Source of the DNA: an uncultured virus (IMG/VR IMGVR_UViG_3300023081_000006)
Taxonomy: Duplodnaviria; Heunggongvirae; Uroviricota; Caudoviricetes
Strand: one strand, 5' to 3'
Virus record (IMG/VR): IMGVR_UViG_3300023081_000006
DNA length: 64,000 nt
Positions 6,552-60,345 of the stretch are shown here, one piece after another. Below the pieces are notes generated by a model that made no database searches, had not been told where the DNA came from, and saw only the letters and a list, made by a program, of their open reading frames with translations. Numbering within the stretch: the first letter of the stretch is position 1; every line of letters begins with the position of its first letter. The position numbers and the translations under genes were made by a program.

Positions 6552-7322
6552 TTACCATTCCATACCAGACAAGAGTTTATCTAATTGCCTGACACGTCTA
6601 ATTGTATTTTGTTTTAAAGCCTCTAACATATGATTGTGATATGTTGTATTATTACATAGGTTAGCCATATGTGTCAAGTCTTTTGGTAAACATTTTCCCC
6701 CAAAACCTAAACCACCGTCGGGCCCTGGGCATTTCCAATGTGATCCTCCAATTGATACATCTCGGGATAACATCTTTTCTATACTCTCATAGTCCATACC
6801 TTGTTCTTCACAAATGTCATAAAAGTCATTTGCTAATGCTACTCGCATAGCTAGGGCTGTGTTCCTAGCCAACTTAAACATCATAGCTTCTTTACCACTA
6901 ACAATATGTATGTCCTTCAACATAAAAAAGTCTTGTAGGTATTCACCCAAAACTTTATTAGAAGTAACTATGGGAAGTTCTTTGCTAACTACATCTTCTC
7001 TCCAATGTTTCTCCCTGAGAAACTCTGGCATAAAATCCGCATCTGGGAATAAACTAACTTGATCGGGACCTATTGTACTTCTAATAATAATTTGTCCTTT
7101 ACCTTTCCATTCCTCATACACTTTTTCTAAAAGAGTAGTGTCTAAATGCTTACCATTATCTGGAGTAGGTACACAAAGAAAAACAAAATCGTATTTCTTT
7201 TGTTTACCTTCCTCATAACCCAACAAAGGATCATGTTTAGATACCTGAGCATCTGTAAACTCTAACATGTACTCTGTTGCTTTTCCAACAAAGCCATAAC
7301 CCACAATTAATGTTTTTATCAT
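6552..7322 (-). CDS. UDP-glucose/GDP-mannose 6-dehydrogenase family protein (short form)
   Basis: GYGFVG, CVPTP, RSTI, PEFLRE, GFGGKCLPKD with the catalytic Cys. Confidence 0.9.
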   Translation of the reverse strand: MIKTLIVGYGFVGKATEYMLEFTDAQVSKHDPLLGYEEGKQKKYDFVFLCVPTPDNGKHLDTTLLEKVYEEWKGKGQIIIRSTIGPDQVSLFPDADFMPEFLREKHWREDVVSKELPIVTSNKVLGEYLQDFFMLKDIHIVSGKEAMMFKLARNTALAMRVALANDFYDICEEQGMDYESIEKMLSRDVSIGGSHWKCPGPDGGLGFGGKCLPKDLTHMANLCNNTTYHNHMLEALKQNTIRRVRQLDKLLSGMEW

Positions 7323-11148: not shown

Positions 11149-11733
11149 TTAAGGGTTTTGATTAAATTCACCTTCCCTAAACCACAAATTAACAGCCCAC
11201 TTTTCTCCTAGTCCTACAGGCTCTCCGCCATGTAAAGCAAATGGGTGTTCAATGTTTGTTCCGGGATAACATGTATGAAAAATTATTAAGCGACCCTGAA
11301 CTGCATCTACTCTTCTAGACAGTTTAGGAAAAATTGTTCCTCCCCCAGAAGTAGGAGTATTCAAATACATTAATGCAGTTAGAACTCTTTGTCCTCCCGA
11401 CTTAATAAGTTCTGGATTTTTTACAAGATCAAAAGTATCATGATGTGGTTTGTATTCTTGTGTTTTATCATATCGAATAACTTGAGGCGGCTCACTCTGA
11501 GCAGGATGTATTCCTACTTTGGATGCTACCTTTTCCATAAACGTTTTGACAAAGGAATCAGTATGAGATAGCCAATGTTGATAGCTAGTCCTTGCATCTG
11601 TTATTGGATTGTCTTTGTCAAAAACTTTTGAACGTTCTAAATGATCTCGACTCATTTCTATTATAGTTTCGCATTCGTAACTCGTTAGAAAATTGTCCTC
11701 ATAATATATAAGCGGCGTCAAATTTAGGATCAT
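11149..11733 (-). CDS. Prolyl 4-hydroxylase-like 2OG-Fe(II) oxygenase
   Basis: RTS, YKPHHD, QRVLTALMYLN, GGGTIFP, LHGGEPV, KWAVNLW. Confidence 0.92.
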   Translation of the reverse strand: MILNLTPLIYYEDNFLTSYECETIIEMSRDHLERSKVFDKDNPITDARTSYQHWLSHTDSFVKTFMEKVASKVGIHPAQSEPPQVIRYDKTQEYKPHHDTFDLVKNPELIKSGGQRVLTALMYLNTPTSGGGTIFPKLSRRVDAVQGRLIIFHTCYPGTNIEHPFALHGGEPVGLGEKWAVNLWFREGEFNQNP

Positions 11734-13891: not shown

Positions 13892-14446
13892 TTACTTACC
13901 AATTCGCTCTTTAATGTCAGCGGTATCATTTAGTGTAAGTTCAATGTGCCGTCCACCTTTCAAATAAGTTAGCACAGTTTGAGGATCAGATACTTCATAT
14001 GGATCCTCAGGGTGGTTTGCAGATTTACCTGGCTCTTCAAACAGCTTTTCTACTTCGCCGTTATTAACAACCATTGCATATCTCCAAGACCTAATACCAA
14101 AGCCTAAATTGTCTTTGGCGACAAGCATATTCATAGAATGTGTAAACTTAGCAGAACCATCTGGGATAAGTTTAACATTTTTAATTCCCAAGTCCTTTGC
14201 CCACGCATTCATTACAAAAGTGTCGTTGACACTTAGGCAATATACTTCGTCAATGCCATGCGCTTTAAACTCATCATAGAGTTCGTCATAGCCAGGTAAT
14301 TGATAGTTAGAACATGTAGGAGTAAATGCACCTGGCAGTGCAAACAATACTACACGCTTACCTTCAAATACTTCTTTAGATGTTAGTTCAGCCCATTCGC
14401 TATCTACACGAACAGGCCAACTAAGATCAGATACTAAATTAAGCAT
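13892..14446 (-). CDS. Peroxiredoxin (Prx5/redoxin type)
   Basis: PGAFTPTCS, SVNDTFVMNAW, RSWRYAM. Confidence 0.93.
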   Translation of the reverse strand: MLNLVSDLSWPVRVDSEWAELTSKEVFEGKRVVLFALPGAFTPTCSNYQLPGYDELYDEFKAHGIDEVYCLSVNDTFVMNAWAKDLGIKNVKLIPDGSAKFTHSMNMLVAKDNLGFGIRSWRYAMVVNNGEVEKLFEEPGKSANHPEDPYEVSDPQTVLTYLKGGRHIELTLNDTADIKERIGK

Positions 14447-21018: not shown

Positions 21019-21713
21019 GTACTGCTCCTTTTAAACCTGTATACTGTTAAACCACCATTCCGGTAATTTAATATATTTTTTAAATTTACAAAATTGTTCT
21101 TCTTACTAGGATGTATTTCTATAACATCAAAGTCAGAGAAATAACCTATAAATTCTTTATTGGAAAAACTTGTTTCAAACGGTGCCTCTTCTTGATCTTT
21201 TCTTAAAAGTTCTGATCTGTATTTTACGTTAATAATTTTTTTGACAATCTTTCCAAATTTATTATAAACACCTAACACCAAAGTTCCTTCCTGTGATAAC
21301 ATGCTTTTTATTTTTATAATAGCATCGTAATACATTGGCATATGATGTATTACTCCATTACTTATAATACAATCATATTTTTTACGTTTATCAAAATCAA
21401 AAAAGTTTTTCTTTTCATAAACTACATTTTTTAATTTGTGTTTTTTACTAAACTCTTTTGCATAATCAATTGAATCACTGAAGTCTACGCCAAGAAACTT
21501 TTTACTAGGATATTTATATGCCAAGTAGTTTGTTATAAACCCTGTACCACAACCTATATCTAAAATATTTTCTTTATCCTGTATAGCACGTTCGTACATG
21601 GATAAAAATTTATTGGTGTATCCATTGTTATAGTAATCAAAGTTATCTATTGTATATGGTCCAGGAAACTTTATTTTACTATAAAAGTCCTTGACCTCAT
21701 TTTCAAGGTTCAT
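21015..21713 (-). CDS. Class I SAM-dependent methyltransferase
   Basis: ILDIGCGTG, GVDFS, GVIHH. Confidence 0.88.
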   Translation of the reverse strand: MNLENEVKDFYSKIKFPGPYTIDNFDYYNNGYTNKFLSMYERAIQDKENILDIGCGTGFITNYLAYKYPSKKFLGVDFSDSIDYAKEFSKKHKLKNVVYEKKNFFDFDKRKKYDCIISNGVIHHMPMYYDAIIKIKSMLSQEGTLVLGVYNKFGKIVKKIINVKYRSELLRKDQEEAPFETSFSNKEFIGYFSDFDVIEIHPSKKNNFVNLKNILNYRNGGLTVYRFKRSST

Positions 21714-22270
21714 TTTTTCTTTGTGCCACTTTTATTTCTTTTTTCCAAACGTTTAATCACTTCATTGGCATCCATCCAAAAGTCTTTTCCTTCCACAACT
21801 TGATCTATCTCAGTTTTAGTCATAAACCCTGAGTAAACGCTATGTAATAAATTATTAGCCCAAGCGTGTTCAGCAAGTGCTCTTGAAATTAATTCGTTTC
21901 CTTTACCCCAATTACCTGCTGAATAATTATGAATTAGAAACTGAGAATGTTCTGAAACCTCGCAAACATCTGCCGTTAAAAATAAGAATGTTGCTGCTGA
22001 CATGCAGGCTCCTTCTACAGAAGCAACCACGGTTCCTTTACATTCGCCTATTGCTCGCATCAACTGTATGGTTGTCATTATATCACCACCATAACAATTA
22101 ATATGAAAAATTATGTAATCGTTTTCGCCTGCTGATCTAATAGACTGATTCCATAACACATAATCTTTAGGGCTTTCTATTGTATCGTTTAGATAAAAAT
22201 CTAAAACTCTACCACCTGTTCTTTCAAAAATTCCTGCTTCTACATTTACATTGACATTAGATTCGTTCAT
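21710..22270 (-). CDS. ClpP-like serine protease
   Basis: INCYGG, CMSAAT (catalytic Ser), LIHN, DFWM. Confidence 0.85.
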   Translation of the reverse strand: MNESNVNVNVEAGIFERTGGRVLDFYLNDTIESPKDYVLWNQSIRSAGENDYIIFHINCYGGDIMTTIQLMRAIGECKGTVVASVEGACMSAATFLFLTADVCEVSEHSQFLIHNYSAGNWGKGNELISRALAEHAWANNLLHSVYSGFMTKTEIDQVVEGKDFWMDANEVIKRLEKRNKSGTKKK

Positions 22271-22629: not shown

Positions 22630-23169
22630 TTAGACTCCTTTTATATTATTTATGTTCCTTTTGAAACGCTTAATTTTTTTGTCTAAGGCTTTTAATGCTC
22701 TGTCAAGTTTAAATTTAGATACTCGCATTGTAAAATTTTTACCTAACATGTGATCGTATTCGTGTAAGGCAATTCTTCCTGCAAGTGATTTGAATGTTTC
22801 AAAGACTTCTTTACCTTCAGTGTCTGTATATCTAAAGGTTGCTTCAGTTGGCCTGTTTACATGTAACCACAATCCAGGAAAGGACAAACACCCCTCTTTT
22901 TCTATAGATGTTTCATCACTTACAGATACTAGCAAAGGATTAAATAGAATACGATTAAAGCCTTCCGCTTGAGGAATATTAATAGTAAAGACTGCCATAT
23001 CTAATCCTACTTGGTTAGCTGAGAGTCCTGCACCATTGAGCTCTTGTGTTCTCTCTAAAAGAACCTTTGCTACTTCTTTAGCATCGTGTTCCTCATAATT
23101 GAAAGGACTAGGAGTCTTTCTTAATAGCTCATGTCCAAAAGGCAGTAATTGTAATTCTTCTTTATTCAT
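22630..23169 (-). CDS. def: Peptide deformylase
   Basis: GAGLSANQVG, EGCLS, HEYDH. Confidence 0.96.
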   Translation of the reverse strand: MNKEELQLLPFGHELLRKTPSPFNYEEHDAKEVAKVLLERTQELNGAGLSANQVGLDMAVFTINIPQAEGFNRILFNPLLVSVSDETSIEKEGCLSFPGLWLHVNRPTEATFRYTDTEGKEVFETFKSLAGRIALHEYDHMLGKNFTMRVSKFKLDRALKALDKKIKRFKRNINNIKGV

Positions 23170-23400: not shown

Positions 23401-25071
23401 TTATACCATAACAGAATAATTTTGTTTTTTCTCAAATCTAATTACACTTCTAAACTTGTCAAACAACTGATCACCTTTATGACTTATGACAAAGACATGT
23501 GTGTCTTCGCCTATTGTATTTAATAACTGCATGACATAATCTGTTCCATTTATATCTAGAGAGCTATCAAAAACCTCATCCAATAAAAGTAGATTCGTAC
23601 TAGCACTATTTTTCATCTTTGCTATTGTTCGCCAAGTAAATACAAGTGCTAAGTCAATACGTTGTTTTTCACCTTCACTAAATGAAGCGTAACTAAATTT
23701 ATCTCGATGTCTGGACTTAATAGTTTCTTTAAATGTTTCATCTAAATCAAACTGTACGAAAAAGTCCATTGCTGCTAAGTATTTATTAACTAATTTATTA
23801 ATAACAGGTAAATATTGTCTAATAATCTTAGTTTTAATACCAGAATCCTTTAACAAAGAACTTGCTATATCGTGATAATGTTTATCTTCATTCAAAGAAC
23901 TTTTTTCATTTGACTTTCCTACAACATTTTTAGCAAGTTCTTTTAACTTCTTTTTCTCGTCATCAATGTCTGCAACCTGAGTGGTTACTTCATTCTTTTC
24001 AATAGTCAGACGCTGTATTGTTCTTTGGTCTGCAATAATAGAGTTTTGTGTATCTTGTATCTTACTTTCAATATCACACCACTCCTCATACAATTTATCA
24101 AGTTCCTCTAACTTAACATCTAAATCTGTTAGAGCATTTTCAAATTCTTCTACAGACTTTATTTTTTCATCTGTAATTTTTTGCCTGTGTTCATGTGGAA
24201 TACCTTGTTTACAAGTAGGACACTCCTCATTATCAGAATAGAAATTTAATTCTGTTTTTGCTTCTGAGAGTTTTCTTGTAATTTGTTTTCTGTATTCATT
24301 AAACTTTGAGGCTCTTTTTGTAACATCTCCCAATGAAGTCTTCTTCTCTGTGAGATTTTCAACCTGTTCTGTAAGTGTATTAATTGTCTCTTGCGTTGCA
24401 TCTATATCCTCTTGTATTTTGCTAACACGATTCTTTTTATTTGTCTCTAAAGTATCTATATATTTCTTCTGTAGTGTTGCCTTCTCTTTAGCAATCTCAA
24501 TCTCACCTTCTAGAAAACGTAGCTTCTCTTTTAAGCTATCCATTTTTTGTTTCAACACTTTATTCATTGTTGTAAAAATTTGGATATCTAATATATCCTC
24601 AATAATTTCTCTTCTAGCACCTAAATGTAATTGCATAAAAGGTGTGAACGAAGCACTACCCAAGACACTTATCTGTGTAAAAGATTTGTAATTTAGTTTT
24701 AAGATGCCTTCTTCTAGATACTTTTGATAGTCCCTAACGTTGGCGTCCTGATTTACTCTTTCACCATTAACTTCTATTTCAAAAATACTGGGAGATGCTC
24801 CTCGCCTAACTAGGTATTTGTTCTTGCCTATCTCAAACTCAACTTCCACCATAAGTTTTTTCTTATTAATAGAATTGATGAGCTGTGGTTTGGATATATT
24901 TCTAAAGGGCTTGTTAAACAATGCGTAAGTTAGAGCATCTAGAAGTGTAGACTTACCACTTCCGTTGTCACCCACAATTAATGTATTAGGACTTCTATCT
25001 AAAAGGATTTCTGTAAAAGAATTTCCTGTAGATAGAAAGTTTTTCCAGCGTACCTTCTTAAAATAAATCAC
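23401..25071 (-). CDS. gp46: Recombination endonuclease ATPase subunit (Rad50/SbcC-like)
   Basis: GDNGSGKS, CPTC hook, FSEGE, LDEVFD. Confidence 0.97.
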   Translation of the reverse strand: MIYFKKVRWKNFLSTGNSFTEILLDRSPNTLIVGDNGSGKSTLLDALTYALFNKPFRNISKPQLINSINKKKLMVEVEFEIGKNKYLVRRGASPSIFEIEVNGERVNQDANVRDYQKYLEEGILKLNYKSFTQISVLGSASFTPFMQLHLGARREIIEDILDIQIFTTMNKVLKQKMDSLKEKLRFLEGEIEIAKEKATLQKKYIDTLETNKKNRVSKIQEDIDATQETINTLTEQVENLTEKKTSLGDVTKRASKFNEYRKQITRKLSEAKTELNFYSDNEECPTCKQGIPHEHRQKITDEKIKSVEEFENALTDLDVKLEELDKLYEEWCDIESKIQDTQNSIIADQRTIQRLTIEKNEVTTQVADIDDEKKKLKELAKNVVGKSNEKSSLNEDKHYHDIASSLLKDSGIKTKIIRQYLPVINKLVNKYLAAMDFFVQFDLDETFKETIKSRHRDKFSYASFSEGEKQRIDLALVFTWRTIAKMKNSASTNLLLLDEVFDSSLDINGTDYVMQLLNTIGEDTHVFVISHKGDQLFDKFRSVIRFEKKQNYSVMV

Positions 25072-26123
25072 TCGAAATCTTGTGCCTCAATGTATAAAGT
25101 CTGTAAAAGATTTTTTAATCTTTCTTTGTCTGCATCTGTTGACACCGTATCTACATATTCTTTTAGCAATGTCATCGTGTCTTCTAAGTTGATATCTTCG
25201 CCTATAGCCTCGTCCTCAAACTCAGAAAAGTCTTCAATAATTTTTAACTCTATTGGATTTTGTTGATATAGATTATCTATAAAAGAATCAAATTTAGCAA
25301 AGTCTGTTTTCTTAGTAACAATTACCTTTAAACAGCTGCCACTAAAAACATTATAATCACAACTGTCAGAAACGCAAGAGTCTCCACTATCGTCATAGTA
25401 TAATTTATGGAACATCCTAAACGGGTTATTAACATATTCAAGCTCTGCTTTATGCGTGTCAAATATGGCAAATCCTCTTGGGTCTTCGTAGTCCGACCAC
25501 GTGATCTCGTAAGGGTTGCCCATGTATGTGATATTACCTCTGCTATGCCTATGATGAAAATGCCCACTAACCACAAGCTCAAAATTATGAAAGCTAGAAG
25601 GGTCCATACCATGAGGATTAGGCATGCCAGGAAGCATGTCATAACCTGCGAACTCAAAATGCCCGAAGCAAGTCCTCGCGCGCGTGTTTTTAATCTGTTC
25701 CATTGATTGTTCATAGTTTTCCCCGCATATCCAAGGCATCATTAAAACTAGATGCCCATCTAAGTCAACTACCTCAGGTTCCTGGTGTATGATTATGTTA
25801 TCATACTCTTGTAATAACAAGTTAGGAGAGTTGACATCGTTTGTGTTTTTATAATAAGTGTCGTGATTGCCAGGAATCATATGAATATCAATACCTAAGT
25901 CCCTGGCTTTGTCAAAGAAATATTCCTTACAAGACTTTAGTGTATTGTAATTTATATATTTTCGTCTGTCGAACGTGTCTCCCAGATCGAAAATAGTTTT
26001 AATGCCATGTTCTTCTAAATAGGGGAAAAAAGTTTTTTCATAAAACTTTCTAAAGTAGGCATCAAACTGTATATTATCGCTTCTTGCACCAAAGTGCAAG
26101 TCCGTAATTAGAGCAACCTTCAT
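25068..26123 (-). CDS. gp47: Recombination endonuclease subunit (Mre11/SbcD-like)
   Basis: TDLHFG, GDTFD, GNHD, SGHFH. Confidence 0.97.
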   Translation of the reverse strand: MKVALITDLHFGARSDNIQFDAYFRKFYEKTFFPYLEEHGIKTIFDLGDTFDRRKYINYNTLKSCKEYFFDKARDLGIDIHMIPGNHDTYYKNTNDVNSPNLLLQEYDNIIIHQEPEVVDLDGHLVLMMPWICGENYEQSMEQIKNTRARTCFGHFEFAGYDMLPGMPNPHGMDPSSFHNFELVVSGHFHHRHSRGNITYMGNPYEITWSDYEDPRGFAIFDTHKAELEYVNNPFRMFHKLYYDDSGDSCVSDSCDYNVFSGSCLKVIVTKKTDFAKFDSFIDNLYQQNPIELKIIEDFSEFEDEAIGEDINLEDTMTLLKEYVDTVSTDADKERLKNLLQTLYIEAQDFE

Positions 26124-26578
26124 TAATCAATCTCATATATCGCCGAGTTGGCTCCGTGCTCACTAACTTCACAAGATACACAATAGCATCTACCATTAGT
26201 TATATCTTTTACTAACCCATCTGCATACCAAAATGCTTGTTCTGCAAACTTTTCACACCCAACACCTGGTAAGACATTTACTACTGCAAGTCCTTTGTCT
26301 TGTAATGACATCAATTCTTTTATTTCTGGATCGTCTTTGTCTACAACAAGAGTATGATCAAAATTATTTTTTAGCCATTCCTTTAAAGGCTTTAACCCAC
26401 CAAAGTCTACTGCCCAGTTCTTATCATCAAGTGCATGCGTTCCAAACTTAAATTTAAAAGATAGTGCGTAACCATGCAACAAAGAACAATGACTGTGTGT
26501 AGCATTGGGTTGTCTGAAGACACAGGAAAGTCCTTCATTGTGTCCGTATGTTTTTGTTGACAAATGTCTATGTTGCAT
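26123..26578 (-). CDS. queD: 6-carboxy-5,6,7,8-tetrahydropterin synthase
   Basis: CSLLHGY, VDFG, FDH, VSEH. Confidence 0.9.
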   Translation of the reverse strand: MQHRHLSTKTYGHNEGLSCVFRQPNATHSHCSLLHGYALSFKFKFGTHALDDKNWAVDFGGLKPLKEWLKNNFDHTLVVDKDDPEIKELMSLQDKGLAVVNVLPGVGCEKFAEQAFWYADGLVKDITNGRCYCVSCEVSEHGANSAIYEID

Positions 26579-27653
26579 TTATTGCTCCTAAATTTTTATA
26601 TATGTTGTTTGCTGAGAAATATTCCTCAGAAAGGTGTTGTTTAGTAGTTTCAATTGCCGTTTGTACTTCTTCACTATCAAAGTTTTCAATCAACCATTGT
26701 AACTTTTCCTTCATAGGAGTTTTATATTCTACTAAAAAGTTTTTAGCATTCGTTGTCCATTCTGAAGGATATTTAAAAATATCTGGATACATTTCAGTAT
26801 AACTTAGTCTATCGGGAACCAAAGGTATTCCACCTGCGTGCAATATTTCATAACAGCTTATACCCAATGTTTCCTGTAAGTTTGCTGAGAAAACAACCTT
26901 GGACCTTGCCAACAATTTGTGATAAGCATCCTTAGTTAAGTTTTTATCTTGGCATGTAATAAATTCATATTCACTTTCCCAAGACAGTGCATTAAAAATA
27001 TCTACTTGCTTTTCGGGTGCTAACCTGTGAGGAAAAAGAACAATGTTTTCTTTTTGTTCTGCAGGCTGAATTTGCTCTGAGACATATTCCATAGGCCAAC
27101 CAGCTCTAGTAACTTTACCACTCGGCATGTATCTAATTCTACCCGTTCTTTCATCTACATCTAATAAGTTTTCAAAGAACATCCTAATGTGAAAGTCTGT
27201 AGCAAAGTAATTGAAATCGATTGCCTCAAATAAAGACTTTTCAAAGTTTCTTACCCAACGAGCATCGCCTATAAGTCTGCCTAAAAAGTCTGCGGGGTCA
27301 TAACTACCAGCATGCCAAAGTGCATGTATTTTAATTGGAACATTTAACAGTTCCGACATATATTTTAGATTAATAATACCTGGATGCCAAGCATCAGCAA
27401 AAACAAAATGATCGCCAGGATTAATTTCGTTGTTAGAGAATAATTTAGAAAACTTTTCTACCTGTACAGATTTATATACATTAGTTCCAGAAAAGTTTAA
27501 GAATGCACCAGGTGTTGTACATGCCGCAATGTGTTCAGGACCATCAATTACTGTAACTTCAAGTCCCTGTTCTTTTATCATTTTAGGAAAGTGTTCTTTC
27601 CACTGAGAAGTATATCTACTCTCTACACTTTCTAAATCAATTAAATAAATCAT
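26568..27653 (-). CDS. GT-B fold glycosyltransferase
   Basis: FPHRLAPEKQ, QETLGISCYE (E-x7-E), VPDRLSYTE. Confidence 0.82.
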   Translation of the reverse strand: MIYLIDLESVESRYTSQWKEHFPKMIKEQGLEVTVIDGPEHIAACTTPGAFLNFSGTNVYKSVQVEKFSKLFSNNEINPGDHFVFADAWHPGIINLKYMSELLNVPIKIHALWHAGSYDPADFLGRLIGDARWVRNFEKSLFEAIDFNYFATDFHIRMFFENLLDVDERTGRIRYMPSGKVTRAGWPMEYVSEQIQPAEQKENIVLFPHRLAPEKQVDIFNALSWESEYEFITCQDKNLTKDAYHKLLARSKVVFSANLQETLGISCYEILHAGGIPLVPDRLSYTEMYPDIFKYPSEWTTNAKNFLVEYKTPMKEKLQWLIENFDSEEVQTAIETTKQHLSEEYFSANNIYKNLGAINAT

Positions 27654-27999
27654 TTGTTACAATGCCGCCGTTCTCATTATCTTCGTAAACTTCTACTTTA
27701 ATTCCACGCTTAGGGTAATTAATTTCAATGTAGTCTAACAAGTCCTCTGCTAACATTTCACAAGACTTGTAATCAATATCCATAGCACCTTCTTCAAATA
27801 AATTTTCGAGCTCACGTTTAAATAAAATAAATTCAACATCACGGTCATCGTGATGTACTTCTAATGTTACATAGAAATGAAACATGTGGCGATGGGGGTA
27901 TTGCAAAAACTCTACCCCTTTAAGTTTTTTTGCTGCTGGGTATTTGTGTATACCCTCTTTTTGAAAACTTACTTTAATATGTCTTTTAGCTACAGGCAT
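27637..27999 (-). CDS. QueD-like T-fold protein, DpdL-like (putative CDG decarboxylase)
   Basis: LQYPHRHMF (LxxxHRHxF), SCEMLA, VYEDNENG; located in the deazaguanine cluster. Confidence 0.65.
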   Translation of the reverse strand: MPVAKRHIKVSFQKEGIHKYPAAKKLKGVEFLQYPHRHMFHFYVTLEVHHDDRDVEFILFKRELENLFEEGAMDIDYKSCEMLAEDLLDYIEINYPKRGIKVEVYEDNENGGIVTNDLFN

Positions 28000-28531
28000 G
28001 AAACCACTCCGGTGTTTGTCTATTAGTCCACACAGCAAACCTAGTTTTGTACTTGTTATAATACTGACGATATGCCGTTACAACATCAGAATGTTTAACG
28101 TCGTCTGGCATAGCCTGTGGTACCTCAGTGCCAGGAATATTAGGAATATTCTCAGGCGGTGTGCTTAGTATATGCTCTAATTTAGTCTGTGTCAAGTGCG
28201 TTCTGCCATATCTGAATGTGTATTCTTTACACAATTCTAACCAAGCATTATAGAGCTCGTTATAGTTTTCTACAGATTCTCGTACCCACTTTGCCGTTGG
28301 ATGATTGATGTGCGATGCCTTATATAAAATATCTTCTAGTTCAGCATCTTTCATACGCCAACGCTTAATGCGTCGATTGTTAGCAGTTTTGTCAATATAC
28401 AACTCACCGTCTAATACACGATGTGCAGTACACATAAGTTGACAATACTCTGTAGGCATCTTAACAGCATGCTTGTCTAAATGATATCTAGCTGCATGCG
28501 TAAGATTGTTTGACAGTTTAAAATAATTCAT
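27986..28531 (-). CDS. Pyrimidine-dimer DNA glycosylase (DenV)-related family protein
   Basis: DKHAVKM, HINHP, EYTFRYG, QAMPD, AYRQYY. Confidence 0.7.
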   Translation of the reverse strand: MNYFKLSNNLTHAARYHLDKHAVKMPTEYCQLMCTAHRVLDGELYIDKTANNRRIKRWRMKDAELEDILYKASHINHPTAKWVRESVENYNELYNAWLELCKEYTFRYGRTHLTQTKLEHILSTPPENIPNIPGTEVPQAMPDDVKHSDVVTAYRQYYNKYKTRFAVWTNRQTPEWFHACS

Positions 28532-28758
28532 GACATTAAGTTATTAAATAGTTCCTCAAACTCTGAGTTCAAAGTAGTTTCTTCAGAAAAGTTTCCTTTG
28601 TGATATGCTCTAGCAATTCTACGTAAAAGTCTACGATCAATGCCTTCCTCATCGTGAATCTTTTTAATAATTTCTCTAACAAGTTCACGCTCTGATTCTG
28701 ATCTAGTCATAGAGTTAGAGATTTCTACGATAGCGTTTCTAATTTTTTGTGCATCCAT
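28528..28758 (-). CDS. T4 DsbA-like dsDNA-binding protein
   Basis: 76 aa helical protein with LRRIARAYHKGNF. Confidence 0.6.
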   Translation of the reverse strand: MDAQKIRNAIVEISNSMTRSESERELVREIIKKIHDEEGIDRRLLRRIARAYHKGNFSEETTLNSEFEELFNNLMS

Positions 28759-30020
28759 TATGTAAATAACTCCTCAAGTGATAGTGGTGCTTCTTCCCTA
28801 ACAGGTGCAGATTTCATACTGCCACCTAGATAAGGATTGTTGTACCAATAGTTAAACGCATCCGGATCTTTAATATCATATAAATTTCTGTATGCGTGTT
28901 CTAGTTTTAACTTACGAGCAAATTTTAACAGTTCGTCAGAATTTGTCAAGATCTTTTCTACGTGTTTGGTAAAATTGTGTATGCTCATTAGAATAAAAGC
29001 AGTTCTAATCTTTAACCATGTATTTAAATCGCTGTTTTCTTCTAACCATGTTGTACTGTTGGTGTTCATAATTTTGTGAAAATCTTTAACAGAAACGCCT
29101 AAATCAATCACTTTATTGACGTCATCGTACATTTCTAGGTAGTAATTTGAGAATTTTCTATTAAACTTAACTGTGGCCTCATTCATATAATAAAGGCCTG
29201 TTTCTACTGCTCTGGAGTGCGTTGTGCTATCATATGATATAACAACGTCCTTATATAAACCGTTTTGTAAAAATATAATATAAGGAAGCAACCTACGTAA
29301 AGCACCCACACCTAGAATGTGAATGTGTAGTTTGCCGTTTTCATCTCTAATTGGAACTTGACTAGCAATAAATGCTCGCTGTATATCTTCTAAATTGCCT
29401 GTACCCAAGGCAGCAGCACCCATGGCGATACCGCCTAGTTTGTTATGTTTCTCTTGTGGTACTTCTTCAAGAATGTAATTTGCCCACTCCATATAGGTAT
29501 CATAACAATTACCTTGTAAAATTACAAATGGTTTACATTTACTGTTAAACTTGTCAAAGATCTCAAATTGTCGTTTGATATTTTTTCCCGTATCTCTTGC
29601 ACATTTCTCATGTGCCTCACGGTTGAAAAACCTCCCTTTAACATCATTCCTATCAGAACGATCACCAACCAATGTAACAGGTATCTCGTCAAAACACATT
29701 CCGACATCAGCCCATTGTGCCTGATTCTCATAGACTTTATCTTTTAATTCGGGTGTTATTGTTTTACCTTGAGTTACTACCTGCAAGCCACCGGAGTCTG
29801 CATGGATAGACTTAATGTTGTCTTTATAGACTTTGAATCTTTCACCAAAACTTGATTCTGTATAAGCATTATACAGCATTGAAAACTCATGGGAGTTATG
29901 ATCTTGTACGGTTTGGGAAAGTAGTTCGTTTACAATTCCTACATTAATATCATCACCTGCAATCTTAGGATTGCTAAGTCTCATATAGGAAGTTCCGGAT
30001 ACTACATACTCTAATTTCAT
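28758..30020 (-). CDS. dpdA: TGT-fold transglycosylase, DpdA-like (deazaguanine DNA insertion)
   Basis: ADSGGLQ, FDEIP, ILQG, HILGVG, SYDSTT align with TGT motifs and both catalytic Asp are present; clustered with folE/queD/queE. Confidence 0.8.
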   Translation of the reverse strand: MKLEYVVSGTSYMRLSNPKIAGDDINVGIVNELLSQTVQDHNSHEFSMLYNAYTESSFGERFKVYKDNIKSIHADSGGLQVVTQGKTITPELKDKVYENQAQWADVGMCFDEIPVTLVGDRSDRNDVKGRFFNREAHEKCARDTGKNIKRQFEIFDKFNSKCKPFVILQGNCYDTYMEWANYILEEVPQEKHNKLGGIAMGAAALGTGNLEDIQRAFIASQVPIRDENGKLHIHILGVGALRRLLPYIIFLQNGLYKDVVISYDSTTHSRAVETGLYYMNEATVKFNRKFSNYYLEMYDDVNKVIDLGVSVKDFHKIMNTNSTTWLEENSDLNTWLKIRTAFILMSIHNFTKHVEKILTNSDELLKFARKLKLEHAYRNLYDIKDPDAFNYWYNNPYLGGSMKSAPVREEAPLSLEELFT

Positions 30021-30556
30021 GATCTCAATATATCTAATAATAATTTAGTTTCTGCAACGGCATCGTGCAGTGCGTTATGGTTAACACCTGTTTTTTCAAG
30101 ACGGCGACCAAGAACATTTGCCATAGTCCTCAAGCAGTAAATGTCCCAGAACATCCACGGATATTTATTAGTTGGAGGACGTTGACTGTTCCAACCTGTG
30201 GCTGTATATGCTGACTCTAAAATAACAACGTCAAAGTTAGCACCAAATCCCCAAATAGGAATAGACGTGTCGCCATAAAATAAAGCAAATTTATCCAAAG
30301 CCTCATCTAATGGCACAGGGTTTTCTTGCCACATCTTTCTGGCTTGAGGTGTCTGCTCTTTCCACCACTCTATTGTATGTGGGTCTACATGTAATCCATA
30401 GTCTTTGCAAGATCCTGGATCTACATTAATAAAAAATTCTTCTGTAATTCCGTCTTGTATTGTAAATGCAACAGCACCGATGCTAACAATACATGCGTTA
30501 GGTTGTGTACTTAGCGTCTCTAAGTCTACAACAATTTGTCTTTTAGAAACGTCCAC
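30017..30556 (-). CDS. DEDDh 3'-5' exonuclease (DexA-like)
   Basis: VDLETLS, GANFD, HNALHDA. Confidence 0.88.
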   Translation of the reverse strand: MDVSKRQIVVDLETLSTQPNACIVSIGAVAFTIQDGITEEFFINVDPGSCKDYGLHVDPHTIEWWKEQTPQARKMWQENPVPLDEALDKFALFYGDTSIPIWGFGANFDVVILESAYTATGWNSQRPPTNKYPWMFWDIYCLRTMANVLGRRLEKTGVNHNALHDAVAETKLLLDILRS

Positions 30557-31238
30557 TACCCAATTCCTGTAATTCTATATTGTGCATAAATTCATTTTTA
30601 AGAGCAGAGTCTGTGCGTAACAAACCTTTTAGAACTGTGGTTTGTGTAGAACTATTAGAAGATCTAATGCCTCTATTTTCACAACAACCATGTCGTGCTC
30701 TAATATAAACACCTACTGCTTTAGACTCAGTTAGCCTTTCAATTTCTTTAGCAATCATTTCGGTAAGTTCTTCTTGTAGGTGTCCGCGAGATGCTAAGTG
30801 TTGTGCTACTCTCGTATATTTAGATAATCCAATAACCTTTTGTCCAGGCATACAAGCAATGTAACAAACACCTTGAACGGGTTGATGATGGTGAGAACAC
30901 ATGCTTTTAATGTCTGATCTAATTACAATTAATTGTTCGTAATTATCTTCATTAGGAAAGGAAGTAACCGCAGGGGGCTTTTCGTATCTACCACCCATAA
31001 TTTCTAGTACATACATTTTTGCTAGACGCCTAGCGGTGTCCCTACTGTTAGGATCATTTTCAGTATCAATAACTAGAGACTCTAGAACACCTTGAAACTT
31101 TCCTTCTAGTTCGTTAATTAGTTGATCGTGCTCCCAGCTCTCAATATGTTGTGAGATGTTATCACACGCAAAGAAACGAACACCTCTTTTCTTAAGGCGT
31201 TCTGCGATTTCCTGACTTACAGGCTTTCTATTTTCCAT
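30543..31238 (-). CDS. folE: GTP cyclohydrolase I
   Basis: SMCSHHH, IGLSK, LQEELT, HGCCENRG. Confidence 0.96.
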   Translation of the reverse strand: MENRKPVSQEIAERLKKRGVRFFACDNISQHIESWEHDQLINELEGKFQGVLESLVIDTENDPNSRDTARRLAKMYVLEIMGGRYEKPPAVTSFPNEDNYEQLIVIRSDIKSMCSHHHQPVQGVCYIACMPGQKVIGLSKYTRVAQHLASRGHLQEELTEMIAKEIERLTESKAVGVYIRARHGCCENRGIRSSNSSTQTTVLKGLLRTDSALKNEFMHNIELQELGSGRF

Positions 31239-31665
31239 TATTTAAATTCTCCCACGGAAATACTATCCAATTTGCGTTATTATATAACGTCATTCCCTCA
31301 ATGTCAAGTGCTATATCTGACCGTTTGTTAAAAATGGTACCGTATTTAGCAAACTTGGTTTGTGATTTCATTTCAGTTATTGTTTTCCCTGTATCTAAAA
31401 TGTCATCAAATATCAATGTGTCTGGTTCATCATTCCTTAATAAGGTACCCAGATCCCGTTGAGATCCGTCCCTTGTTTGCCATATGAATGGTTCGAATGG
31501 CACATTTAGGAAGTGTGAGAGCATTACCCCCGGGACTAATCCTCCTCTTGATACCCCTAAGATTTTGTTTACGGGAAAGTCTAAGTTTTTGCATATTGAC
31601 TCCATTATTAATTCTAAATCCGACCACTGCACAAATAATTGTTTTTTACTATCATCTATCTGCAT
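31228..31665 (-). CDS. Type I phosphoribosyltransferase (Gpt/Xpt-like)
   Basis: GVSRGGLVPG, IFDDILDTGKT (PRPP loop), WIVFPWE. Confidence 0.9.
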   Translation of the reverse strand: MQIDDSKKQLFVQWSDLELIMESICKNLDFPVNKILGVSRGGLVPGVMLSHFLNVPFEPFIWQTRDGSQRDLGTLLRNDEPDTLIFDDILDTGKTITEMKSQTKFAKYGTIFNKRSDIALDIEGMTLYNNANWIVFPWENLNNGK

Positions 31666-32552
31666 CACGTACCTATTTGGTTGCCAAACACATAAGCATG
31701 ATTACGAGTAGCAACCTTGTATCCTCGTTTCATAGCTTCGACACAAATGTCTGCTACTTCTTCTTGTTCTTCTTTTGTAGCACCCACAGGCATAATCCAA
31801 ATATCTGGCATAGTCATTTCTGCAAAAGAACAATACTCTTGAACTTGCCGTACATATTCTTCTAGTTCAAACCAACTTTCTTCTGATCCGTTACAAACAA
31901 ATTTAAGACAACCAGTGCTAACAGTATTAAAAAGGTAAGACATAAAGTTGTCTACATCTACCCTGTCTATTTCGCCTGCGGTATGTAAAGTCTTTGGACT
32001 AATAGCCCAATGCCAACGAATGCCCATTTCAGCTAAGAATATGTTTATATAATCTTGTAAATCTTTGCTTAGTTTTTTTGTGCCGTTTGTTTCTACTGTA
32101 ATGATCTTAGGAACATTTCCTCGAATAAGAAACTCATTAACAATGGCTTTCATTTGCCTTTGTTGTAGCATAGGCTCACCACCAGTAAAGGCAAGCATAT
32201 TTTCTTGTTTTGTTATAGGATGTGTAAACTTACCGTAAGGTAAAAGTTCTTCTAATTTATTACAAGCTTCTTCTGGGTTTGTATCTTGTGCGAGATGTTT
32301 ATACTTCATAGACCAAGAATAGGAAGAGTCGCAACCATACTCCCACACAGGAAGGTCTTCTACACGCTTAACATCTATTAAGTCATAATCTTTATAGGGA
32401 AGTTTCCATGTGCTTGGATCTGAGGGAGTAGCTTGTCCAAAACCATTACACTCTAAGTTACAACCAAAAAATCTAATCCAAACAGTTGGAGTTCCTGCGA
32501 GCTCTGCCTCACCTTGGAACGAATAGAACATTTCTGAATAACGAACTTTCAT
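31665..32552 (-). CDS. queE: 7-carboxy-7-deazaguanine synthase (radical SAM)
   Basis: EMFYSFQGE, RFFGCNLEC...GCDS, TGGEP, ETNGT, SPK, MPVG. Confidence 0.92.
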   Translation of the reverse strand: MKVRYSEMFYSFQGEAELAGTPTVWIRFFGCNLECNGFGQATPSDPSTWKLPYKDYDLIDVKRVEDLPVWEYGCDSSYSWSMKYKHLAQDTNPEEACNKLEELLPYGKFTHPITKQENMLAFTGGEPMLQQRQMKAIVNEFLIRGNVPKIITVETNGTKKLSKDLQDYINIFLAEMGIRWHWAISPKTLHTAGEIDRVDVDNFMSYLFNTVSTGCLKFVCNGSEESWFELEEYVRQVQEYCSFAEMTMPDIWIMPVGATKEEQEEVADICVEAMKRGYKVATRNHAYVFGNQIGT

Positions 32553-32586: not shown

Positions 32587-33174
32587 TTATTTAGAAGAAA
32601 TGTCAAGCTCTTCTGTGTTTGAATCTGACCTTTTATCTAAATACTTTGGTCTTCGTTTAATAACCTTTTTCTTGGACTGTTCTTCTTTATGCTTGGCTTC
32701 TTCTCTAGCATTGTTGTCCAATTGTTCTTGCATCCACTTTAGATATTCATTTGTTTGCGGGTCGTTGTCACCAACCTCATCCATTAAACTTTGTATATCT
32801 ATACTCTGAAGATACTTAATCTTTTTGTTAATCATGTCTTTCTCTTTCTGTATTCTGCGCAAGAAAGCATAATAGGTTATTTGTGTGAAGTATGCGAATG
32901 GGTTTTTAGATTTTTCTGGATCAAAGTTATCAATATATGTTAAACAGTTTTCAATGCCGTCCAACACCATTTCATCTCTAAAAGTATAATTGATAAAATT
33001 AGATTTCATAGATAAGTGATTTGCAATCTTAATAAAGCACTCACCTAAATAGTCCGTTACAGGTGGTTTGTCCCGCCCTTCTTCCTGGGCAGCTAAAACA
33101 CTCTTCTTATACTCTGATATTTTTTGATAGAACTCTTTGTTGTCAACATAGTGAGCTCTTACGTTTTCTTTCAT
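32587..33174 (-). CDS. gp55: Late transcription sigma factor
   Basis: HYVDNKEF, NFINYTFRDEM, NPFAYFTQI, AFLRRIQKEK; SD GGAG before ATG 33174. Confidence 0.97.
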   Translation of the reverse strand: MKENVRAHYVDNKEFYQKISEYKKSVLAAQEEGRDKPPVTDYLGECFIKIANHLSMKSNFINYTFRDEMVLDGIENCLTYIDNFDPEKSKNPFAYFTQITYYAFLRRIQKEKDMINKKIKYLQSIDIQSLMDEVGDNDPQTNEYLKWMQEQLDNNAREEAKHKEEQSKKKVIKRRPKYLDKRSDSNTEELDISSK

Positions 33175-33200
33175 TTTGGTCTCCATTATAAAAATTTTTC

Positions 33201-33229
33201 TTGACAAGCGTAACGCTTAGTCGTATAAT
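33201..33229 (+). promoter_or_regulatory. Perfect sigma70 promoter on the antisense strand
   Basis: TTGACA(33201)-17 bp-TATAAT(33224) with an AT-rich UP element; no plausible plus-strand CDS downstream. Confidence 0.75.
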
Positions 33230-54471: not shown

Positions 54472-54487
54472 AGAAATTTTGATTACA

Positions 54488-55135
54488 ATGAACACCATTT
54501 TAACATTAAAATACGGAAACAAATACACGTCGAATGACGTTAATTCTATTTATGAAAAAACAAGACCCCACAATTTTGTCTGTGTCACAGATAATCCTGA
54601 GGGTCTAGATCCAAATATACAAGTTATTCCTATAACTTGGGAAATAGAAGGACATTGGGAAAAGGTTAAGTTAATGCGTTATAATAATCTAGGCTCTGTA
54701 TTGTACCTAGATTTAGATATTCGTATACAAAAAAATGTAGATAATTTTTTTAAAATGCTTGACAAAACCCCTATGATTTGTTATACTTATTGGAAACCTA
54801 ATGATCTAGCGTTCATCAAATCTAAAGACTGGTCTTATAATTATTTAAGTAACTATAACTCTAGTGTCATGATGTGGCAAGATGCTACTCACATATATAA
54901 TTATTGGAAGGAAAACTCCGACTATTATATGGTAAAATATGCAGGAGATGATAGATTTCTATTTCATGAGGGATTTACTTTTGAACACTTCCCAGAAGGA
55001 GAAGTATATTCCTTTTGGTTTGACGGCGGAAAGATAAAACCAAAGGCAACAATTGCTTTATTAAATGGACAAGAAAGTATAGAGGAAAATATAGCAAAGC
55101 ATTATGATGAACTTTATTTGCATCAAATGGGGTGA
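54488..55135 (+). CDS. GT-A glycosyltransferase-like protein, paralogue 1
   Basis: LKYGNKY, CVTD, YLDLD (DxD), NSSVMMW, GDD. Confidence 0.8.
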   Translation: MNTILTLKYGNKYTSNDVNSIYEKTRPHNFVCVTDNPEGLDPNIQVIPITWEIEGHWEKVKLMRYNNLGSVLYLDLDIRIQKNVDNFFKMLDKTPMICYTYWKPNDLAFIKSKDWSYNYLSNYNSSVMMWQDATHIYNYWKENSDYYMVKYAGDDRFLFHEGFTFEHFPEGEVYSFWFDGGKIKPKATIALLNGQESIEENIAKHYDELYLHQMG

Positions 55136-55883
55136 TAAATATTCTCCTGAATATGTAAACAACCTCAAAAACATGGTCGAAAAAAACTTTACACGGCCGT
55201 GTACATTCACCTGTTTCACAGACGATCCTGCAGGATTAGAATGTGAATATCTACCTATTCCAGATGTACAACCATTGCATCCTAAATACTGGTTTGGTAA
55301 AGATAACTATTGTTGGGATAGAGCTAAATTCTTTGTGTTTAATGCACACAATATTTTAGGTTATAAAGGCAAGTATTGCTATTTTGATTTAGATGTAATA
55401 ATTCAAAACAATATAAACGACTTAGAAATATTGGCAAAAAAACCAAGACTTGTACATTCCAAATGGCAACCAGACGGACAACAACACGATAGATTTTTTA
55501 TAGACATTCGTGGCACATATTATAATACAAGTATGATGTGCTGGGAATACAATCAATGTGAGCAAATATATTACGATGTTTTAGAGCATCAAGATGTTGT
55601 GTTCAAAACATTTTTTAAAGGATCAGATAACTACCATTATTGGAGACAGCGTAATTTCTGGGGCAACATTCCTTTTGATTGGGTATACTCTTATAACAGA
55701 GGAGCTCATTGGAAAGAGGATAACGACAAGTATAAATATAGAAAAGAATACAAAGTTTGTATTTTTAACACAGATTTAACACCCGATCCTGCAGCTAAGG
55801 ATCAAATTAAGATTAGTGATTTACAAGATGAGAAACTTTTGAGGCATTGGCATGGAGCTAACTTTAATAGCAAATCTACTTGA
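55104..55883 (+). CDS. GT-A glycosyltransferase-like protein, paralogue 2
   Basis: CIKWGDKY, CFTDD, YFDLDV, NTSMMCW, GSDNY, YSYN. Confidence 0.8.
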   Translation: MMNFICIKWGDKYSPEYVNNLKNMVEKNFTRPCTFTCFTDDPAGLECEYLPIPDVQPLHPKYWFGKDNYCWDRAKFFVFNAHNILGYKGKYCYFDLDVIIQNNINDLEILAKKPRLVHSKWQPDGQQHDRFFIDIRGTYYNTSMMCWEYNQCEQIYYDVLEHQDVVFKTFFKGSDNYHYWRQRNFWGNIPFDWVYSYNRGAHWKEDNDKYKYRKEYKVCIFNTDLTPDPAAKDQIKISDLQDEKLLRHWHGANFNSKST

Positions 55884-57351: not shown

Positions 57352-57590
57352 ACACGACAAGAGAAATAAGAAAGTCAACCGCATATATGGGTTCCTTTAA
57401 TGATTGGAATAATGAGGATACAGACTTCGTTATTGATTCTGTAAGAGGAGGCAGGTTTGTTTCTATTGTAGTTAAAGGTCCCAGGGAACAGTTTGACGAT
57501 ACATCTAGCAATATTGTATGTGAACTTGTAAATTATGGTTTGATGTACGGCAGAGACTTTATTCTACAAAACCTGACGGAGACATCATGA
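57348..57590 (+). CDS. Hypothetical protein
   Basis: SD GGAG; ATGA overlaps on both sides. Confidence 0.65.
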   Translation: MNTTREIRKSTAYMGSFNDWNNEDTDFVIDSVRGGRFVSIVVKGPREQFDDTSSNIVCELVNYGLMYGRDFILQNLTETS

Positions 57591-58399
57591 GAGTAAATGT
57601 CGTATGTTGTAAATGGGGAACCAGGTATGGTCCTCACTATGTTAATCGTTTATATAACATGTCTAAAAAGAATATAAACGATAAGCACGAGTTTCATTTT
57701 TACTGTTATACAGACGACAGCGAGGGCCTATTAGATGACATTAAAGTTATACCATTTCCTGATATTCCTAATATCCATCCTAAGTATTGGTTTGGCAGCG
57801 ATGATTTCAAGTTTGGAATGGCAAGGTGCTGGGACAGGCCTAAAACATTTATTTTTAATACGCATAACTTTGCTGATGATAAGCCTCATGGCCGCTTTAT
57901 CTTTTTTGATTTAGACGTTGTAATACAAAGAGATTTAGAACCTGTTCTAACTTACAATATGGAACGTCCAACAAAAATGAGATCTTGGTGGCAGGATCCT
58001 CGCCCAATGAAAACAAGAAGATTTAAGTTAGCACATGGAGCGCATACCAACGGCTCTTGTCAGGTATGGAGCGATGATCAATGTGAGGTAATATGGGAAG
58101 ATGTATTACAAAACCAAGATAAAATATGGTTCACTTATACAGACGGAACAGATAATTATCACAGTTGGAAGTGGAGAGACTTATGGGATCACTTTCCCTC
58201 AGAATTTGCCTACTCCTATAACAGAGGAAGGGACTGGGAGTCAGGTGATTTAGAAGTTGGTATATATAGGGAAGGTTGCATTCTTTGCGTATTTAATGTG
58301 GACATACTTCCTTTTGAGGATAACAGTCGAGGACATGTAAAACAAGATGACCTCGCAGATCCTAAATTATTAAAGCATTGGACAGTGAATGAACTTTGA
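57587..58399 (+). CDS. GT-A glycosyltransferase-like protein, paralogue 3
   Basis: CCKWGTRY, CYTDD, FFDLDV, NGSCQVW, GTDNY, YSYN. Confidence 0.8.
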   Translation: MRVNVVCCKWGTRYGPHYVNRLYNMSKKNINDKHEFHFYCYTDDSEGLLDDIKVIPFPDIPNIHPKYWFGSDDFKFGMARCWDRPKTFIFNTHNFADDKPHGRFIFFDLDVVIQRDLEPVLTYNMERPTKMRSWWQDPRPMKTRRFKLAHGAHTNGSCQVWSDDQCEVIWEDVLQNQDKIWFTYTDGTDNYHSWKWRDLWDHFPSEFAYSYNRGRDWESGDLEVGIYREGCILCVFNVDILPFEDNSRGHVKQDDLADPKLLKHWTVNEL

Positions 58400-60344: not shown

Positions 60345-60345
60345 T

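Follow-up and report, generated by a model that had tools for sequence, protein, structure and literature searches.

A glycosyltransferase that travels with DpdA in phages predicts a sugar-bearing purine in DNA

Results

The window analysed here is a 64,000-nucleotide stretch of DNA from an uncultured virus (IMG/VR record IMGVR_UViG_3300023081_000006). Between gp55 (32587-33207) and gp47 (25068-26123) lie ten open reading frames, all on the minus strand, which together occupy positions 26123-32552 (Table 1). From queE to gp47 neighbouring genes overlap pairwise throughout, by 1-17 nt; the glycosyltransferase (GT) gene shares 17 nt with the gene for DpdL and 11 nt with queD. A sequence-only reading of this DNA had described this overlapping ten-gene run and both GT overlaps, and the reading frames lie where it placed them. 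Its assignment of FolE, QueD and QueE to the deazaguanine pathway is borne out by Pfam and PHROGs family matches, and its PRTase, exonuclease and dsbA calls agree with the matches in Table 1. The label 'denV-like' for the gene next to dpdL gained no support: the product matched phrog_624 and gave neither a denV Pfam match nor a PDB match.

Table 1. Genes of the cluster and one gene outside it (positions in the window)
Product	Position	Strand	Basis or remark
QueE, radical SAM CDG synthase	31665..32552	-	phrog_2076 6e-46; weak NCBIfam QueE matches below cut-off
Xanthine-guanine-type phosphoribosyltransferase (PRTase)	31228..31668	-	NF006613 3.6e-13, below cut-off; phrog_8995
FolE, GTP cyclohydrolase I	30543..31238	-	PF01227 2.4e-40
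Rv2179c-like 3'-5' exonuclease	30017..30556	-	PF16473 1e-37
DpdA2-type DNA guanine transglycosylase, 420 aa	28758..30020	-	homology, TGT fold
DsbA-like dsDNA-binding protein; passenger	28528..28758	-	PF11126 3.2e-8
Small protein, phrog_624 'DNA binding protein'; optional in relatives	27986..28531	-	
DpdL, T-fold, proposed CDG decarboxylase	27637..27999	-	36% to phiST CGPG_00067
GT-B (GT4-like, retaining-type motifs) glycosyltransferase, 361 aa	26568..27653	-	model fold, motifs, co-occurrence
QueD, CPH4 synthase	26123..26578	-	PF01242 1.6e-11; phrog_2389 2e-39
UDP-glucose/GDP-mannose dehydrogenase-like, outside cluster	6552..7322	-	PF00984 9.8e-18

DpdL probably starts at the ATG at 27999, which gives a protein of 120 aa. 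The PRTase probably recycles displaced guanine or salvages deazaguanine; it was found in 38 of the 48 GT loci described below and is present too in DpdA3 loci that lack the GT. The dehydrogenase-like gene might conceivably contribute to sugar-donor supply, and in 23 loci, counted without dereplication, a gene of a nucleotide-sugar dehydrogenase family is found no more than 7 kb from the GT. Contigs from three metatranscriptome runs span the cluster, including the GT gene; such contigs show neither transcription, strand nor level.

The GT was modelled as a GT-B fold with a pLDDT of 86.4, and a fold search returned BshA and SPS, both GT4 enzymes, as its best matches (Z 24). Two Rossmann domains are present, and H114, R210, K215, E261 and E269 are conserved in 110 sequences that are 29-50% identical. 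These residues supply the His, the Arg/Lys pair and the E-x7-E expected of a GT4-like retaining GT-B enzyme, which we take to be the GT4 motif. Additionally, the acceptor domain has invariant residues that are specific to the family (E8, R13, Y14, W18, F51, D87, W89, D119, D122 and E138); two conserved stretches, residues 44-54 and 119-127, form low-confidence loops in the model. The GT-B assignment made in the sequence-only reading is therefore clear from the fold, although the match to PF00534 is weak (4.6e-4; 20.2 bits against a cut-off of 26.4); the BUDD homologue reaches 45.7, above the cut-off. The GT has an acidic pI of 5.2 (net charge -15), the family median pI is 5.7, and the T4 alpha-glucosyltransferase (AGT) is also acidic (pI 6.1). 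The family is large, with at least 8,000 candidates at E 0.001 and 448 representatives (50% clustering) that pass 1e-30.

The same reading had likened the locus to that of T4 alpha-gt. The T4 gp47-gp55 interval does hold the a-gt gene, and the two proteins have the GT-B fold in common. However, we found no sequence or profile kinship between them: the HHalign probability was 1.4%, AGT (1y6f, Z 17.4) ranked only 35th in the fold search, below GT4 enzymes, and in other phages the GT lies elsewhere in the genome. A search of PDB sequences with the GT profile gave two chance matches (E 0.25) and none to AGT. The acceptor of AGT is hmC, and this phage apparently cannot produce it, as no hydroxymethylase of the thymidylate synthase family (PF00303) was found in the complete genome of a twin phage, where the T4 gp42 control was positive. 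To judge from sequence and model, this 361-aa protein is intact, belongs with the GT4-like GT-B enzymes and is not a T4 alpha-gt orthologue. We reject descent from either alpha-gt or beta-gt on the basis of profile comparison and fold ranking.

DpdA is 36-38% identical to the VH7D, nt-1, KVP40 and ACP17 genes (E about 1e-45), the last of which is entered as DpdA2 in passages of DS1 of Cui et al. (PMC10516641). Its model (pLDDT 92.5) matched TGTs in all 50 PDB matches listed, and D75 (in DSGG), D111, H234 and D264 are invariant in 23 sequences. Homology to named phage proteins and a TGT fold thus uphold the dpdA call and identify a transglycosylase with the catalytic aspartate motifs. The DpdA2 profile matched that of the short DpdA3 enzymes with a probability of only 1.5%, and the enzyme here is of the DpdA2 type, not the short phiST type that replaces G in full. 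The 540-aa enzyme of PA5oct has a profile probability of 97% to DpdA2 and 4.5% to DpdA3, but is filed as DpdA3 in the DS1 passages of Cui et al. (PMC10516641).

The DpdL call is likewise secured by homology to a named phage protein, phiST CGPG_00067 (36% identity, E 9e-12). The phiST-type motif LxxxHRHxF occurs here as LQYPHRHMF, and LxxPHRHxF is invariant in 38 sequences. No alignment column separates the DpdL proteins of GT-plus loci (155 distinct sequences) from those of GT-minus loci (29). Canonical QueC was not found in the phage's own record, which is 75% complete; in the complete twin genome two genes resemble QueC and carry SGGxDS and a cysteine motif, but YxQxH, VPxRN and YPDC are missing from them. 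A local QueC profile, built from one seed and 2 matches, scored in 0/48 GT loci, which is a weak count because the profile also missed the annotated QueC of Moby.

Our two locus sets, for the GT and for DpdL, comprise the best 80 of 594 and of 566 confirmed matches, respectively, and therefore lean toward close relatives. Within the GT set, all 48 dereplicated viral loci contain DpdL and a DpdA, with folE in 44 and queE in 45; this was the co-occurrence check that the sequence-only reading had proposed, and the outcome supports that reading. In the DpdL set, which was likewise drawn from the best 80, the GT is present at every locus with DpdA2 or a long DpdA (24/24) and at none with the short phiST-type DpdA3 (0/11). 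It was also absent from 6/6 whole cultured phiST-type genomes, in a search that matched the positive control BUCT-ZZ01, and was not found in pf16 and Moby, which are DpdA2 phages with QueC. The GT occupies other genome positions in jumbo phages and in ACP17, and is still beside dpdA/dpdL there. The link to DpdA persists in phages that are unrelated and on GT branches that diverge deeply. A quick GT tree with long branches showed several deep subfamilies, and the DpdA label changed about 9 times on it, a pattern that does not show co-evolution.

Four alphaproteobacterial loci combine a DpdA-like gene and the GT without DpdL, and the preQ0 transporter YhhQ is present in the three that were checked; canonical QueC was not found in Pelagibacterium and Devosia either. 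PhiXhv-12 carries the most distant GT homologue of a cultured phage (24%), with Gat-QueC two genes away; its genome gave no match to a short DpdA2 profile, but this profile failed to pick up the long DpdA of Phosso as well. In Vibrio phage 2.275.O a long DpdA occurs with QueF, QueC and YhhQ, and the next gene in the local region is not this GT. Thus, the GT is not an obligate partner of a long DpdA.

Discussion

Based on these results, we propose a model in which a purine that has been swapped into DNA then receives a sugar; we consider it somewhat better than an even proposition. FolE, QueD and QueE, whose genes are present, would convert GTP to CDG by the known pathway. DpdL would then decarboxylate CDG to 7-deazaguanine, a function proposed in passages of Cui et al. 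2023 (PMC10516641). DpdA2 would exchange guanine for 7-deazaguanine at a subset of sites in replicated phage DNA, as its family suggests, and the PRTase may recycle the guanine set free. Finally, the GT would use an NDP-sugar to glycosylate the inserted base. We place the GT after the DNA-insertion step because it is tied to the type of DpdA and is kept with DpdA in bacterial loci that lack DpdL.

The model departs from known systems in different ways. The phiST dDG system (Cui et al. 2023, PMC10516641) likewise has FolE, QueD, QueE and DpdL, with the same DpdL motif and active-site columns and no canonical QueC, but it combines them with a short DpdA3 and no GT homologue, whereas DpdA2, the GT and the PRTase occur here. 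The Vibrio phages VH7D, nt-1 and KVP40 (dPreQ0, dPreQ1, mdPreQ1) have a DpdA2 of the same subfamily and, in DpdM, a known post-insertion tailoring enzyme, but use QueC/QueF and a methyltransferase; tblastn of their records gave no DpdL or GT match. ACP17 (Acidovorax), BUDD (Xanthomonas), BCSR5 (Burkholderia) and PA5oct/Paride (Pseudomonas), all found among the DpdL and DpdA phages in passages of Cui et al. DS1 (PMC10516641), each have this GT in the cluster. The word 'glycosyltransferase' is absent from a supplementary file of that paper, and passages of its main text name no such gene.

Which atom might carry the sugar? 7-Deazaguanine offers no hydroxyl acceptor, which argues against our model, and as it lacks a C7 side chain, N2, O6 and the pyrrole carbons are left as acceptors. 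By analogy with huimycin, the 2-amino group (N2) seems the likeliest site, because the same GT family occurs with an imported (YhhQ) or a Gat-QueC-made base and because N2-glycosides of 7-deazaguanine are known natural products. Passages on huimycin (PMC7439116) describe a 7-deazaguanine whose 2-amino group bears GlcNAc, a step attributed to the GT HuiG. The huimycin/dapiramicin clusters also combine FolE, QueD and QueE with a GT; huimycin, however, is a free small molecule whose synthesis involves QueC plus an O-methyltransferase and no DpdA.

The nearest folds of our GT, BshA and SPS, are small-molecule enzymes and not DNA glycosyltransferases, and this, like its acidity, speaks against the model and for action on a free base or nucleotide (DG, CDG or preQ0). 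The product would then be the substrate of DpdA2 or a glycoside for storage, detoxification or signalling. HuiG has been proposed to use a free base, and a base transporter is part of the bacterial module. We nevertheless regard this explanation as unlikely: the GT tracks the type of DpdA and not the synthesis genes, and phiST-type phages make the same base without it. An N2-glycoside should not fit the guanine pocket of a TGT; a C7-linked sugar might, yet this would still yield a glycosylated base in DNA. It is also rather unlikely that the protein serves the DpdA2 step as an accessory through some other chemistry, acting on protein (DpdA, DpdL or host defence) or on an exchange intermediate, so that the DNA contains plain dDG. 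The strict association of the GT with DpdA2 and long DpdA would suit such a role, but VH7D DpdA2 is active alone in E. coli and the QueC-bearing DpdA2 phages pf16 and Moby lack the GT. Passages of Cui et al. 2023 (PMC10516641) report that ACP17 DpdL and DpdA2 formed no dDG in E. coli, which counts against our model; as the GT gene that lies between the two was not among the genes expressed, the result also fits an accessory. However, the phiST pair, naturally without a GT, failed in the same test, and the ACP17 result therefore does not point to the GT.

Two further explanations leave 7-deazaguanine aside. The GT could serve a modified pyrimidine in the manner of T4 alpha-gt, or a surface glycan, its position in the cluster being incidental. 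The gp55-gp47 interval, shared with T4 a-gt, was seen in 68/68 loci showing both markers (not dereplicated), other GTs and sugar genes occur in the genome, and a TET-type enzyme could make the acceptor (a TET/JBP search was silent, as were its controls). We find this quite improbable, as the GT profile resembles neither AGT nor BGT, the twin genome has no hydroxymethylase family gene, and the dpd linkage holds at other genome positions and in bacteria. Least credible, and very improbable in our view, is a pterin glycoside made from FolE/QueD products, as by the cyanobacterial tetrahydrobiopterin glucosyltransferase. FolE and two T-fold genes do adjoin the GT, and that BH4 glucosyltransferase (5zer) is a fold match (Z 19.4), but it ranks only 26th, among generic GT-B folds, and the bacterial module keeps DpdA and YhhQ with no pterin genes within 10 kb.

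Under the model of glycosylation after insertion, the role of the GT would resemble that of AGT, to sugar a DNA base. The likely benefit is that host enzymes directed against 7-deazaguanine DNA would overlook the base, with restriction resistance kept. Attack on such DNA by host glycosylases is described in passages of a recent report (10.1101/2025.10.29.685425). According to passages of another (PMC12191111), PA5oct DNA is resistant to five restriction enzymes and contains a modified G without an assigned structure, but END nucleases still cut it; thus, the protection is not general.

A full-text search of openly readable papers and preprint texts found no report of glycosylated 7-deazaguanine in DNA. 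The glycosylated DNA bases known to us are pyrimidines. The genes for base swapping are known; it is the GT travelling with DpdA that predicts a sugar-bearing purine, and this prediction is directly testable in cultured phages (PA5oct/Paride, ACP17). If true, a GT-dependent sugar on 7-deazaguanine would be a new class of base and would imply new N- or C-glycosylation chemistry on DNA, by an abundant GT family that might serve as a tool to sugar-label DNA. It could also account for the modified G of PA5oct/Paride, which are jumbo phages of Pseudomonas. In sum, we lean slightly toward the view that a very large phage group, which includes PA5oct/Paride and ACP17, and a mobile bacterial DpdA-YhhQ-GT module build glycosylated 7-deazaguanine in DNA, in which an undescribed GT family would attach a sugar at N2 or at a pyrrole carbon and so disguise the DNA a second time, from host enzymes that recognise 7-deazaguanine.

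Results

The window comes from a T4-like phage record (122,533 bases, 75% complete), and a complete twin genome, G001 (162,417-base contig, 100% complete), has this cluster too, 99-100% identical. The sequence-only reading had described an overlapping run of deazaguanine genes between gp55 and gp47, and this was borne out. Ten minus-strand genes lie there, with overlaps of 1-17 nt between neighbours, and QueE, a purine PRTase, FolE, an Rv2179c-like exonuclease, DsbA and QueD were confirmed by Pfam, PHROGs and NCBIfam.

The 420-aa gene matches genes of VH7D, nt-1, KVP40 and ACP17 at 36-38%, and the ACP17 gene is classed as DpdA2 in a supplement row of Cui et al. 2023 (PMC10516641). The model of the 420-aa protein (pLDDT 92.5) had only TGTs among the 50 matches listed. 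The 120-aa gene matches phiST CGPG_00067, named DpdL, and contains the LxxxHRHxF motif; available sections of the same paper give dDG as the phiST base, with decarboxylation by DpdL as a proposal only. No alignment column discriminated between 155 DpdL sequences beside the GT and 29 beside short DpdA3 without a GT, so both groups probably make the same product.

The glycosyltransferase (GT) is modelled as a two-domain GT-B enzyme (pLDDT 86.4). Its top fold matches are GT4-type enzymes (SPS, Z 24.6; BshA, Z 24.1), followed at lower scores by pterin GT 5zer (19.4), the phage HY126 GT (18.4) and T4 AGT (17.4). Across 110 sequences sharing 29-50% identity with the query, class conservation reaches 99-100% at H114, R210, K215, E261 and E269, as well as at N-terminal E8, R13, Y14, W18, D87, W89, D122 and E138. 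The ESM Atlas clusters holding the GT are unnamed and 95-100% viral. The window GT (pI 5.2) and AGT (6.1) are both acidic, versus 9.05 for BGT. The proposed tie to T4 alpha-gt was not supported: no profile kinship with AGT or BGT was found, and the AGT fold scored well below SPS.

Co-occurrence of GT homologues with dpdA across phages, which the earlier reading had proposed as a check, was found throughout. The GT-anchored set held 147 viral loci, 62 with at least 5 kb on each side and 48 after 90% dereplication; like the DpdL-anchored set, it came from the best 80 of several hundred matches and is biased to close relatives. Within this scope, DpdL and a DpdA lay within 10 kb of the GT in 48/48 loci. 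The DpdA was long in 36, DpdA2 in 10 and matched by both profiles in two; 44 loci had folE, 45 had queE, 38 had the PRTase and 18 had queD. The DpdL-anchored set (80 loci; 40 with at least 3 kb flanks, 35 dereplicated), again the best 80 of several hundred, had a GT in 24/24 loci with DpdA2 or long DpdA versus 0/11 with short DpdA3. Three long-type loci among the 80 lack a GT, and each ends less than 1 kb from DpdL. Whole-record GT searches, with BUCT-ZZ01 as positive control, were negative for phiST, RHph_I1_18, Bakedbeans, D479, Ahp1 and MA9V-3, which have DpdL and short DpdA3, and for pf16 and Moby, which have DpdA2 and QueC. Eleven viral DpdA3 records also searched are 4-74% complete and carry little weight.

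Long DpdA (about 526 aa; Paride_0115) aligned to DpdA2 with 97% probability versus 4.5% for short DpdA3; available sections of Cui et al. 2023 (PMC10516641) file the PA5oct transglycosylase under DpdA3. The long DpdA family, in about 97 loci, had no Pfam, PHROG or NCBIfam match. In Phosso, long DpdA is located far from the GT. Neither Pfam nor NCBIfam matched the ~180-aa family of jumbo-type loci, which had no match in loci of the window's type.

G001 encodes two QueC-like proteins far from the cluster; the records G002 and G004 each have a single copy adjoining nrdB. Three of four records searched gave a QueC-like match, and the sole cultured match is Ralstonia phage RsoM2USA. Since neither G001 protein has the canonical QueC motifs (as given in the available part of PMC13329287), and both are encoded at a distance from the cluster, this phage probably cannot make its own preQ0, although that is not certain.

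Features of the window and of related loci
Feature	Location	Remarks
Low-GC island	window 54479-60742	plus strand, skew reversed; mostly unknown genes, one methyltransferase-like, one Fe-S biosynthesis gene
Auxiliary genes	window 11149-11733, 13892-14446, 21710-22270, 22630-23169	2OG-Fe(II) oxygenase, redoxin, ClpP-like protease, peptide deformylase
Nucleotide-sugar dehydrogenase-like gene	window 6552-7322	
Tandem QueC-like PP-loop/zinc-motif genes	L134:15749-17025	G001, outside window; between nrdA and nrdB
Paride_0115	L002:7373-8995	unannotated 540-aa long DpdA immediately preceding GT
~180-aa family	L003:7320-7718	conserved, adjoining GT/DpdL; also ~90 jumbo-type loci
BUCT-ZZ01 (Synechococcus phage)	L118:5373-9530	DpdA2 and DpdL flanked by two GT-B genes
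BCSR5	L122:9261-11099	PAPS-reductase-like gene ahead of GT; PIG-L deacetylase
BUDD	L004:7374-8947	PAPS-reductase-like gene ahead of GT
Alphaproteobacterial module	L220:8083-11029; L224:8072-11035; L221:7902-11103	long DpdA, YhhQ-type transporter, GT; resolvase adjoining in two cases
PhiXhv-12 (Xanthomonas phage) cluster	L005:1453-10710	Gat-QueC annotated as GlmS, L/F transferase, GNAT, PIG-L deacetylase, distant GT, GFO oxidoreductase

Discussion

Available sections of Cui et al. 2023 (PMC10516641) describe synthesis of CDG from GTP by FolE, QueD and QueE, and DNA insertion by DpdA2. We propose that DpdL would yield 7-deazaguanine, that DpdA2 would put it into DNA, and that the GT would then add a sugar to the base; we lean modestly towards these steps taken jointly. 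Genes, folds, conserved residues and linkage are the demonstrated part of this mechanism. The earlier glycosylated-deazaguanine reading keeps its pathway genes, GT-B fold and dpdA/dpdL linkage, and loses its kinship with T4 AGT. A full-text literature search found no report of glycosylated 7-deazaguanine in DNA.

7-Deazaguanine has no C7 side chain. We favour N2 as the sugar site: DG, preQ0 and G+ all have it, and it bears the sugar in huimycin and dapiramicin (PMC7439116, available part). A C-glycoside at C7 or C8 would be a bolder option. In 23 loci (not dereplicated) a nucleotide-sugar dehydrogenase is encoded close to the GT; these genes, and the one in the window, hint at a uronic acid as the donated sugar. 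The GT-B pair of BUCT-ZZ01 suggests a disaccharide, and the extra BCSR5 and BUDD genes hint at further sugar tailoring.

Other roles for the GT can be imagined. It may sugar the free base and not DNA, which we consider unlikely. That it performs accessory chemistry for DpdA seems rather unlikely to us. The split of GT presence by DpdA type would speak for it, the GT-less DpdA2 phages pf16 and Moby against it. When ACP17 dpdL and dpdA2 were expressed, dDG was not seen (Cui et al. 2023, PMC10516641, available sections); in ACP17 the GT gene sits between these two genes, and those sections do not mention it.

An incidental presence in the cluster is improbable beside the company of DpdL and a DpdA in all 48 dereplicated viral loci. 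A pterin acceptor, which the 5zer fold match would recall, we regard as very improbable, the GT4-type enzymes scoring higher. As for other acceptors, whole-record searches of G001, G002 and ACP17 found no gene of the thyA thymidylate-synthase family, with T4 gp42 as positive control.

Returning to the proposed sugared deazaguanine, GT contexts extend to bacteria. Four alphaproteobacterial loci (L220, L221, L222, L224) of 13 genome-collection loci have the GT and long DpdA without DpdL. A Vut_1/YhhQ gene immediately precedes the GT in all three scanned (L220, L221, L224); YhhQ is the preQ0 transporter (Hutinet 2019, available part). Genome searches of these three turned up no DpdL, and a pair of positive controls was recovered in the second of them. 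Full-length QueC was found in neither Pelagibacterium nor Devosia, and Azospirillum has two. In a quick tree these GTs nest beside bacterial locus L227, which retains QueD, DpdL and QueE. The module looks like a mobile unit that salvages, inserts and glycosylates a deazaguanine.

The PhiXhv-12 GT is the most distant cultured homologue, and its neighbours include Gat-QueC, a PIG-L deacetylase and an oxidoreductase; a DpdA2 search of that genome found none. We consider this a candidate cluster for elaborate archaeosine hypermodification. Across DpdL, YhhQ and Gat-QueC contexts, then, what stays with the GT is a 7-deazaguanine and, in nearly every case, the enzyme that inserts it, irrespective of the source of the base.
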